This document shows positions 1 through 3,293 of a DNA stretch of 64,000 nt, piece after piece. The position numbers and the translations under genes are program-made. Every line of letters starts with the position of its first letter. The first letter of the stretch is position 1. The notes under the pieces are model-generated. The model ran no database searches. It was not told where the DNA came from and saw nothing but the letters and a program-made list of their open reading frames with translations. Origin of the DNA: a virus; IMG/VR virus record IMGVR_UViG_3300048837_000984, positions 96,001-160,000 of that record. One strand, given 5' to 3'.

Positions 1-14
1 TCCTGGAGAGTGGG

Positions 15-142
15 TCCGAGCCGTACCGAGCCTAGCCGCGCCTTGCCATGCCGAACCCTGCCATACTTAGCCAAGAAAGTGCCTACCTGACGGTTTCCCG
101 TAAGGTAGGCCCAGACCACACCAAGCCCCACCACACCTAACC
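15..142 (-). ncRNA. Pentamer (GGY-NN) repeat array, putative guide RNA for the adjacent RAMP-like protein; two runs split by a hairpin; probably continues past the left window edge
   Basis: Minus strand, 142->110: GGT TA GGT GT GGT GG GGC TT GGT GT GGT CT GGG. Hairpin 110->81. Linker ACTTTCTT. Then 72->15: GGC TA AGT AT GGC AG GGT TC GGC AT GGC AA GGC GC GGC TA GGC TC GGT AC GGC TC GGA. Starts 8 nt after the stop codon of 151..819. Confidence 0.8.
81..110 (-). other. Stem-loop with GAAA (GNRA) tetraloop inside the array
   Basis: Minus strand GCCTACCT-T-ACGG-GAAA-CCGT-C-AGGTAGGC: 8-bp plus 4-bp stem with one internal mismatch. Confidence 0.85.
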
Positions 143-150
143 TGGTGCAA

Positions 151-819
151 TCAGCTCAAGGTGACTTCAAACTGGCCCCACGGCCCTGGCGTCGGACAGC
201 CGGGGCGCCAGTCACCGAGACCCTTCTTACCGGCCTCAGCAAAGATCGCTTCGATTGCCGTTGGAGTCAGGACATCTTCGTTGATGATCTGCAGCTCTCC
301 AGTCACCGCCCATGCCGTAAACTGTGGCCGCACACGGACATGCTTCGATTTGTTCGAAATCTTTGCCCGCTTAACGAAGAGCTTGAAGCCCATCTTGGCA
401 ATAGCTGACTGGTGCTTTGGAAACACATCGTCGGGGCTGTCTCCCAGGTCTCGCAGCTTGAGGATCGGCTTGATCGGGATCTGCTTACCGCTGATGGTAA
501 ACTTCAGGTGCTCGTCCGGGATGAAGAGGCCCGACTGCGACGCTTCCTTGAGCGTCTTACCGCGAGTACCTGGGATCGGGATGGTTGCTCCCGCTTGGCG
601 CAAGCAGGAAGAGAGATTGTCAGCCGGCATGCTGATGTGCGTGCCGTCGTGGTAGAGACATCCAAGCCAGGACCACGGTGGCGAGCGGTCGTCGCCCTTC
701 TTGGTAATCTCTTTCGGTGCCGCCGCACGAAATCGCGACAGCTCGTCCGAAAAGTCGATGTTGTCCGCGTGCATCAGCATGTCGGTCCGCCCGCGGCAAA
801 CGAATCTCACCGTACGCAT
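151..819 (-). CDS. Cas7/RAMP-like (RRM-fold) RNA-binding protein, VIPR-like effector candidate
   Basis: N-terminal beta strand with GRTDMLMH, PADNLSSCLRQAG helix, VRVRPQF-x2-W strand, and C-terminal Gly-rich loop GLGDWRP...GPWGQFEV typical of RAMP proteins. SD AAGGA upstream. No other cas genes nearby. Confidence 0.7.
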   Translation of the reverse strand: MRTVRFVCRGRTDMLMHADNIDFSDELSRFRAAAPKEITKKGDDRSPPWSWLGCLYHDGTHISMPADNLSSCLRQAGATIPIPGTRGKTLKEASQSGLFIPDEHLKFTISGKQIPIKPILKLRDLGDSPDDVFPKHQSAIAKMGFKLFVKRAKISNKSKHVRVRPQFTAWAVTGELQIINEDVLTPTAIEAIFAEAGKKGLGDWRPGCPTPGPWGQFEVTLS

Positions 820-831
820 AGTTCGTTCCTT

Positions 832-1053
832 TCACTTGATAAACGCTTCCAGACTGACTTTGAGAGCGTTAGCTAGACATACCGCGGTAGCCAGCGAAGG
901 TCCCCAGAGACCGTCTTCTAGACCGCGGATCGTTTGAAGGGTGATTCCAGATAACTTGTGAAGTTTCTGCTGCGTTAAACCAGCGTCGATCCGAAACTTC
1001 GCCAGCCGTTCACTGAAGAGTGAGTCGATTTCCTTCTTACGCTCGTGCGTCAT
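832..1053 (-). CDS. XRE/Cro-CI family helix-turn-helix regulator
   Basis: LAKFRIDAGLTQQKLHKLSGITLQTIRGLEDG...PSLATAVCLANALKVSLE is a canonical HTH_3 pattern. Confidence 0.9.
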   Translation of the reverse strand: MTHERKKEIDSLFSERLAKFRIDAGLTQQKLHKLSGITLQTIRGLEDGLWGPSLATAVCLANALKVSLEAFIK

Positions 1054-2540: not shown

Positions 2541-3293
2541 TCAGGTAAGAACCTCTACACCAGTCTCTGTCACCAGGACCGTGTGTTCGTATTGCGCCGA
2601 CAGGGATCCGTCCACTGTTCTCACCGTCCACTTGTCAACCTTGTCGACAACAACCTCAGCCAGGCCAACGTTGACGGACGGTTCGATCGTAAACGTCATC
2701 CCCGGCGCCATGGTCAGGATGCTCTCCCACACGACCGTGTGGTTGACCTGTGGCGGTTCATGGAAGGCAAGACCAACCCCATGCCCACAGAACTGGTGAA
2801 CCACCGAATACCCGTGGCGGTTGACGTGCGGCTCGATCGCCTTGCCGATGTTGCTGAAGTACGCGTACGGCTTGACTTGCCGAATCCCCATTTGTAAGGC
2901 CTGCTCGGCTACCGACAACAATCTGCGAGCCTCGTCTGAAATGTCTCCGACGGCGAACGTTGTGCTTGTGTCTCCGTAGTAACCGTTGAGCACGGTCGTC
3001 ACGTCGATGTTGACGATGTCTCCTTCCTTGAGAACGTACTCCGACGGGATGCCATGGCACACCACTTCGTTGACCGAGATGCAAGTCGCAGCTGGAAACC
3101 CCTGATAACCCTTGGGAGCCGGAATGGCTTTGTTATCCGTGATGTAGGCCTCTAGCAAGTCGTTAAGGTGTCTGGTCGTAACACCCGGCAAGACGTGCGG
3201 CTCGATAAACTCTAGGCAAGATCTGGCCAGGCGACAACTCTTGCGGATCCCATCGATCTGTTCCGGCGTCTTTATCAACATGGGTGTCTGCAT
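2541..3293 (-). CDS. map: Methionine aminopeptidase, type I
   Basis: CISVNEVVCHGIP, GDIVNIDVT, GYYGDTS, FCGHGVG, FHEPPQV, TFTIEP, SAQYEHTVLVT: all metal ligands present. Confidence 0.97.
   Translation of the reverse strand: MQTPMLIKTPEQIDGIRKSCRLARSCLEFIEPHVLPGVTTRHLNDLLEAYITDNKAIPAPKGYQGFPAATCISVNEVVCHGIPSEYVLKEGDIVNIDVTTVLNGYYGDTSTTFAVGDISDEARRLLSVAEQALQMGIRQVKPYAYFSNIGKAIEPHVNRHGYSVVHQFCGHGVGLAFHEPPQVNHTVVWESILTMAPGMTFTIEPSVNVGLAEVVVDKVDKWTVRTVDGSLSAQYEHTVLVTETGVEVLT

Follow-up and report, generated by a model that had tools for sequence, protein, structure and literature searches.

We are highly confident that the locus lying across the left edge of the DNA analysed here is a complete VIPR system (Viral Interference Programmable Repeat), built on the vipr-vap1 plan. 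VIPR, a CRISPR-like form of RNA-guided DNA silencing, was first described in 2026, in four preprints (among them 10.64898/2026.04.26.720920, 10.64898/2026.04.26.720927, 10.64898/2026.10.15.759431), and this very recent silencer with its gapped code has been proposed as a relative or ancestor of the CRISPR RAMPs. The window, by which we mean the whole 64,000-nucleotide stretch under analysis, comprises bases 96001-160000 of a 193,694-bp virus record that has direct terminal repeats, is rated 100% complete and comes from an uncultured phage of ~194 kb; a window coordinate is the genome coordinate minus 96000. The assignment rests on the protein's homology and fold, its conserved contact residues, the anatomy of the arrays, covariation in the tails and synteny. 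The protein, array, tail and accessory-gene properties of VIPR that can be looked for in sequence are all present, while of the properties of CRISPR-Cas only the shared fold is. An earlier note on the same DNA had named VIPR and had suspected that this was another member and not a separate class; the system it named is a real, published one of this architecture, and the suspicion was right. The locus is thus a genuine further VIPR example and no separate class, and as a well-resolved case from a large uncultured environmental phage it can serve as an annotated comparison point.

All parts of the locus lie on the minus strand. The operon begins with an HTH gene (window 1053..832), followed by vipr (window 819..151, 222 aa), vrRNA1 (window 142..73, a GGYNN tract plus tail) and vrRNA2 (window 72 to genome 95986), which crosses the left window edge. 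Outside the window follow vrRNA3 (genome 95945..95869), vrRNA4 (genome 95860..95783), a vap1-like gene behind the fourth tail (genome 95760..95308) and a triple-HTH regulator of 251 aa (genome 95308..94556). Type II VIPR, known from Escherichia phage SUSP1 and a Pseudomonas fulva prophage, consists of Vipr, vap1 and vrRNAs (10.64898/2026.04.26.720920), and it is this vipr-vap1 type that the local architecture most resembles.

The Vipr protein and neighbouring genes

The vipr gene opens with an ATG at 819, has AAGGA 8 nt upstream, and encodes a stand-alone Cas7-like RAMP. The public gene call (P0001, 209 aa) starts at Met14 and so omits the first beta-strand; we consider the 222-aa start to be the better call because that strand aligns with all homologues. 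Pfam gave no significant match for the protein, Cas families included, and a family search found 510 proteins at E<=1e-3, with all 120 of the 120 matches listed being unnamed or "hypothetical protein". A profile of 34 homologues, by contrast with the single sequence (E=0.0086 against PDB 36pp), matches PDB 36pp_D, "SUSP1 Vipr protein", with E=7.6e-16 in both its N- and C-terminal parts (hmmsearch), and 36pp is the one meaningful PDB sequence match of that profile. BLASTP against SUSP1 agp039 gives E=6e-9, and one family, phrog_4652, takes in SUSP1 agp039, LESphi2 P21_9, Trine gp41 and the local Vipr.

The earlier note had proposed a RAMP/Cas7 fold, and both Foldseek and structural comparison of an AlphaFold2 model (pLDDT 92.7, pTM 0.87) agree with it. 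The predicted structure matches Csm3 (Z 9.8 and 9.5), type VII Cas7 (9.7), Cmr-beta (9.3), type III-D (9.2), Cmr4 (9.1) and Cas7-11 (8.9); the best 22 structural matches are all CRISPR RAMPs (Z 6.7-9.8), and Foldseek is concordant with E values down to 8e-6. Against the Cas7 folds the similarity (Z 8-9.8) extends over 128-163 residues. With Cas7 subunits such as Csm3, Cmr4, type VII Cas7 and the Cas7-11 domains Vipr shares an RRM core, a glycine-rich loop and a thumb hairpin, as well as a predicted polymerisation along a guide with periodic flipping of bases. It differs from them in having no detectable sequence similarity to Cas families and in its period, which is 5 nt with three flipped guide bases for Vipr and 6 nt with one for Cas7. 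Unlike class 1 CRISPR-Cas, the local system lacks a CRISPR array, processing and large subunits, and adaptation genes; the absence of CRISPR repeats claimed earlier holds, as neither CRISPR repeats nor cas genes lie nearby and the 5-nt units are the sole repeats, and a scan of 13 neighbouring ORFs found no cas or nuclease gene.

In the SUSP1 protein, cryo-EM has shown that H17 and D177 read the first G of each unit (G1), R138 and W178 hold the second (G2), and R179 holds the pyrimidine Y3 (10.64898/2026.04.26.720927). These residues align with H17, D203, R164, W204 and R205 of the local protein, all five of which are invariant across the 34 homologues. R164 is borne by a thumb beta-hairpin (145-167), and GLGDWRP, at 200-206, which the earlier note had taken for the RAMP signature loop, corresponds to the G-loop with which SUSP1 Vipr, in its solved structure, reads GGY. 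Retention of all the GGY-reading residues at ~24% identity supports the generality of the published recognition mechanism. The two proteins also differ: the local one is longer (222 versus 195 aa) and has three insertions, namely a short one after helix 66-77, one of ~25 residues that forms helix 129-141 ahead of the thumb hairpin, and six residues (GCPTPG) directly behind the WRP of the G-loop. In addition, SUSP1 K33, which contacts the backbone beside the skip base, aligns with an Ala. Given the ~24% identity and the three insertions, skip length and DNA preference could differ in the 222-aa Vipr subfamily.

The system had been described in the earlier note as a minimal one-gene system. This does not hold, since an accessory gene stands behind the guide array: a 151-aa ORF (L085:11308-11760, minus strand) begins beyond the fourth tail, with a GGAGG-GTG start at genome 95760. 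Its product matches phrog_5926 (E=2.8e-5), a family that also takes SUSP1 agp038 (1e-75) and LESphi2 P21_8 (4e-31), both of which directly follow vipr in their own phages. When 18 members of the local family were aligned by hhalign to the SUSP1/LESphi2 vap1 pair, the match had a probability of 94.7% (E=6e-8) over 88 columns, a span that includes the GvGYR motif; pairwise BLASTP of the 151-aa ORF against SUSP1 vap1 gave no match, and Pfam gave no significant one. With the arrays masked, a search finds exactly one vap1-like ORF, on the same strand as vipr, at 75 of the 80 IMG/VR loci that encode Vipr homologues. (An unmasked iterative search was discarded; it was contaminated by translated repeat tracts and returned 239 matches, with several ORFs per locus.) On the strength of the phrog_5926 match, the hhalign match and synteny, we read the 151-aa ORF as vap1. 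Vap1 is a DNA-binding partner that enhances SUSP1 VIPR (10.64898/2026.04.26.720920).

The 73-aa HTH gene upstream of vipr is of Cro/CI type (Pfam HTH_3, 9.9e-8; PHROG transcriptional regulators) and, with its stop 12 nt upstream of the vipr start, is probably co-transcribed with vipr; we treat it as a neighbour and not a core part because it is not conserved beside vipr in relatives, and the closest homologues have other genes upstream of vipr. The 251-aa regulator downstream has three tandem Cro/CI-type HTH domains (HTH_31 at 1e-29, in three stretches), and it too is not a conserved neighbour in relatives. Its gene overlaps the vap1 stop by ATGA, and such a regulator beside a silencing system is unusual. 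An uncommon auxiliary gene, for a methionine aminopeptidase (Peptidase_M24, E=1.5e-49), lies 1.7 kb upstream of vipr (window 2541-3293, minus strand).

Guide tracts and tail hairpins

The vipr stop codon, TGA at 153..151, is followed on the minus strand by 8 nt (TTGCACCA) and then by pentamers, which is the spacing claimed for the array in the earlier note. The first run (minus strand, 142..108) reads GGTTA GGTGT GGTGG GGCTT GGTGT GGTCT GGGCC, and the second (minus strand, 72..13) reads GGCTA AGTAT GGCAG GGTTC GGCAT GGCAA GGCGC GGCTA GGCTC GGTAC GGCTC GGACC. The note's count of 19 units (16 GGY plus AGT, GGG and GGA, in runs of 7 and 12) is exact, as is the phase of both runs; however, the final GGGCC and GGACC are not units but a terminal GG followed by the start of a hairpin stem, and the true GGYNN counts are therefore 6 and 11. 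Likewise, the 35 nt between the runs, which had been taken as a gap, are the tail hairpin of vrRNA1 plus ACUUUCUU. On the minus strand vrRNA1 is thus made up of six GGYNN units (142..113), the terminal GG (112..111), the tail hairpin (110..81) and the U-rich ACUUUCUU (80..73), and vrRNA2 of eleven pentamers (72..18; ten GGY and one AGT), the terminal GG (17..16) and a tail hairpin that runs from 15 out of the window and closes at genome 95986, 15 nt beyond its left edge.

The two guide units seen in the window are only part of the set. Extending the sequence leftwards, as the note had proposed, reveals two further tracts, at genome 95901-95945 (9 units) and 95811-95860 (10 units), so that the whole genome holds four GGYNN tracts of 6, 11, 9 and 10 units, all on the minus strand. 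The spacers from each tail to the next tract are 8, 40 and 8 nt. GGY is common to all four tracts and every NN string is different: vr1 has TA GT GG TT GT CT, vr2 has TA AT AG TC AT AA GC TA TC AC TC, vr3 has AG AA AA GG TT GA GA AT CC, and vr4 has CG TG AA CA CC CC AC GC GA AA. Such tracts far exceed those in shuffled sequence. On the minus strand in-phase GGY runs extend to 10, and four of them reach at least 6, versus a maximum of 3 on the plus strand. When the 193,694-bp genome was shuffled 100 times with dinucleotides preserved, the longest run per shuffle was 3-5 and none got to 6. No further unit of array plus tail was found elsewhere in the 193,694-bp genome. One weak run, with GGY in 6 of 8 units (genome 61974-62013), was considered as a fifth guide and rejected; it is without a tail hairpin and lies inside an open frame. 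Tracts 1 and 2 start exactly 70 nt, or 14 pentamers, apart (window 142 and 72) and hence share their 5-nt phase, which is probably a coincidence, since the third tract, 127 nt further on, is out of phase.

All four tracts close with GG, after which come a two-tier hairpin and a U-rich stretch. The vrRNA1 tail, GCCUACCU-UA-CGG-GAAA-CCG-UC-AGGUAGGC followed by ACUUUCUU, folds into an 8-bp outer stem topped by CGG-GAAA-CCG, and tracts 3 and 4 end with GG-ACCCA...UGGGU plus a U-run. In an alignment of nine tails, 10 of 11 pairs have compensatory changes on both sides. When the genome was searched for tails of this form, with GG followed by an 8-bp stem and a U-run, the matches were the four guide tails and two ordinary hairpins elsewhere. 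The last vrRNA hairpin adjoins the U-run GUUUCUUUU, and together they look like a terminator. Rfam 15 has no family matching the vrRNAs, and consensus scans at and near the arrays found neither a sigma-70-like promoter nor a terminator match.

Arrays of this kind are a regular companion of the gene. In a comparison set of 80 IMG/VR loci encoding Vipr homologues at 38-47% identity, 79 have a GGY array beside the gene on the same strand, usually several, as the earlier note would have predicted; opposite-strand GGY runs occur in only 5 of the 80, each with just 5 GGY. Across these loci and the closest relatives (L090-L095), Vipr is 38-68% identical to the local protein and goes nameless or under "hypothetical proteins"; one of the relatives comes from a Vicinamibacterales MAG. 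The closest relatives themselves (57-65% identity) have the unit seen here, with 8-13 pentamers and GG followed by a two-tier hairpin and then AUUUUGAAG or UUUUUCUC. Two of these contigs, L090 and L091, are near-identical and have one guide that differs at NN positions only (CA AA versus CG GG), as one would expect of a programmable segment within a fixed scaffold. These relatives and the IMG/VR loci are like the local system in their hairpin-plus-U-run tails and adjacent vap1-like ORF, and unlike it in guide number, which ranges from 1 to more than 12 tracts, and in the placement of guides upstream and/or downstream of vipr. More distant members have arrays too: LESphi2, a Pseudomonas phage, has three tracts upstream of its Vipr homologue gene, Gordonia phage Trine has two tracts downstream, and in SUSP1 four published vrRNAs flank the vipr/vap1 genes.

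Set against SUSP1-type VIPR, then, the local system is alike in its homologous Vipr with identical GGY-reading residues, in its homologous vap1, in its tandem GGY/NN tracts, which lie on the strand of the gene and all carry a structured 3' tail, and in being phage-borne without cas genes or a nuclease. It is unlike it in several details. The local tail is a two-tier hairpin plus U-run and that of SUSP1 a pseudoknot; the local tracts have no conserved 5' leader; the order is vipr, four vrRNAs, vap1 here and vrRNA, vipr, vap1, three vrRNAs in SUSP1; vrRNA1, with only 6 units, falls below the reported vrRNA length of 9-16 units (10.64898/2026.04.26.720920); and the host is an uncultured environmental bacterium. 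The locus thereby documents variation within VIPR in the tail (hairpin versus pseudoknot), in guide length (6-11 units) and in gene order.

Predicted mode of action and candidate targets

By homology with SUSP1, the locus would be expected to act as follows. The tight spacing of gene and tracts suggests that the vrRNAs are expressed as one transcript, starting at or before vipr, which is later cut into units. Vipr protomers would polymerise along each vrRNA, one per pentamer, into an RNP in which H17 and D203 read G1, R164 of the thumb and W204 hold G2, and R205 of the neighbouring protomer pockets Y3. With GGY thus flipped out and sequestered, only the NN dinucleotides would pair with DNA, and if the subfamily keeps the published skip rule one target base would be skipped per unit, so that the target reads NNx. 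Such a complex should form an R-loop triplex on double-stranded DNA and block transcription, with Vap1, the putative DNA-binding partner, enhancing silencing. The hairpin tail would cap each guide at its 3' end, and the final tail and U-run probably serve as a transcription terminator too. As no nuclease gene is adjacent, the expected outcome is silencing and not cutting, and the likely purpose is repression of a competing mobile element, be it a satellite, a prophage or a rival phage, in the host.

We searched for sites that obey the NNx rule. For vr2, vr3 and vr4 the best self-matches in the phage genome have 73-75% NN match, which is below 80% and no better than controls with 0-nt or 2-nt skips, and vr1, with only 12 specified bases, matches 10 of 12 under every skip rule and so cannot discriminate. 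The only perfect self-matches with 3-nt skips are the guide genes themselves. Self-targeting is also absent from the published loci (10.64898/2026.04.26.720920). Exact NNx matches to vr2 numbered zero in IMG/VR, JGI metagenomes and GTDB genomes; its sub-windows gave 0 and 1 matches, and the site in L108 (18/22, skip base off the wobble position, 45% GC) was taken as chance. The one exact viral match of vr3, on a contig of 36% GC, is likewise at chance level. No confident natural target emerged from the phage's own genome or from the viral, metagenome and genome collections scanned.

The guide vr4 provides a lead. It has no exact viral match, but has one in a metagenome (L086) and two in Candidatus Acidoferrales MAGs (L087 and L088); the latter two represent one homologous locus, ~80% identical overall and ~97% around the site. 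The site is part of a small ORF (...EIYKRWKHPPTAEKPK...) in which all of the skipped bases fall on wobble positions, and it lies in a locally hyper-conserved block of this ORF of 128-166 codons. The surrounding element (L087:151-8000, L088) includes an integrase fragment, small ORFs, a primase-like gene (phrog_2597) and a phrog_29234 protein, and may be satellite-like. Published VIPR guides aim at satellites along codon periodicity (10.64898/2026.10.15.759431), a theme that the vr4 site fits. On the other hand, we estimate that a pattern of 20 specified bases searched on both strands of 596 Gb would match about once by chance, and the other guides do not converge on the element (vr2 and vr3 have no match in the two Acidoferrales MAGs); we therefore keep the match as a lead only. 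A survey of 401 genomes of the order with up to 2 mismatches gave 15 vr4 matches versus 5 for a reversed control, and this apparent enrichment was rejected as not real; only one of the 15 (G001) is exact, and the others are unrelated in sequence. A peptide shared with the L086 site, RW[KN]HPPTAEK, was also set aside, being forced by the pattern within a 21-codon frame and thus of no independent support.

It is improbable, in our judgement, that the 222-aa Vipr is both a distinct subtype and, through vr4, the silencer of the small ORF in this Acidoferrales integrase/primase element. The features to which the distinct-subtype reading would point are the helical/thumb and G-loop insertions, the two-tier tails that double as terminators, and vap1 behind the guides. 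Were vr4 indeed to target the element, it would name the phage's host lineage (Acidobacteriota) and extend VIPR warfare between phages and satellites beyond Enterobacteria and Pseudomonas. The four decoded guides can be searched against the source metagenome for the phage's competitor or host.

Alternative explanations and unusual arrays

Might the pentamer tracts simply be protein-coding, or translated low-complexity sequence rich in Gly, Ala and Arg? Open frames do cross the arrays, a 228-aa ORF (L085 11305..11991, minus strand) spans tracts 3 and 4, and the annotated gene 40 of Trine, a "hypothetical protein", overlaps arrays as well. The 5-nt period, however, is out of step with codons, GGY is conserved and NN variable irrespective of codon position, each tract closes with a hairpin backed by compensatory changes, and the GGAGG-GTG start at genome 95760 yields a conserved vap1-like protein without the array; we give this explanation almost no weight. 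Equally hard to credit is the idea that the gene product is a Cas7 subunit from a degraded or atypical CRISPR-Cas system with the tracts as a decayed CRISPR array. Its appeal lies in the top structural matches, all drawn from the Cas7 family of type III, VII, IV and I systems, but the locus has no repeat-spacer array, the 13 neighbouring ORFs include no Cas5, Cas6, Cas10, Cas8 or Cas3, the sequence homology is to Vipr and to no Cas Pfam family, and a 5-nt unit is foreign to CRISPR architecture.

Somewhat less remote, though still very unlikely, is that this is a real VIPR-family RNP that works otherwise than that of SUSP1, by another skip length, on an RNA target, or in regulation of the phage's own or host genes. 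The ~24% identity, the insertions in the helical/thumb region and after the G-loop, the loss of K33, the hairpin tail in place of a pseudoknot and the lack of an NNx target would all be compatible with such a change, and SUSP1 filaments also pair with single-stranded RNA in vitro (10.64898/2026.04.26.720927). Against it, all five GGY-reading residues are kept, the putative DNA-binding partner Vap1 is retained, and skip rules of 0 nt to 2 nt give no self-match above background in the phage genome.

Some relatives have arrays that depart from the usual form. Over-long tracts of 40 and 29 consecutive pentamers are found (range 20-40, versus the published 9-16), and other relatives have 10-12 short tracts that lie 7 nt apart without hairpin tails, possibly a "staggered" architecture; these unusual tracts are at L007:4662-4861, L050:3380-3524, L083:5125-5816 and L077:3850-4342. 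The local 228-aa ORF through vrRNA3 and vrRNA4 could be miscalled as a gene, and the deposited annotations of Trine and LESphi2 omit the vrRNAs. In Trine, "hypothetical protein" gene 40 (L003:3555-4358) overlaps two GGYNN tracts, and in LESphi2 three unannotated tracts (L002:2584-2888) lie between a "sigma factor" gene and P21_9.
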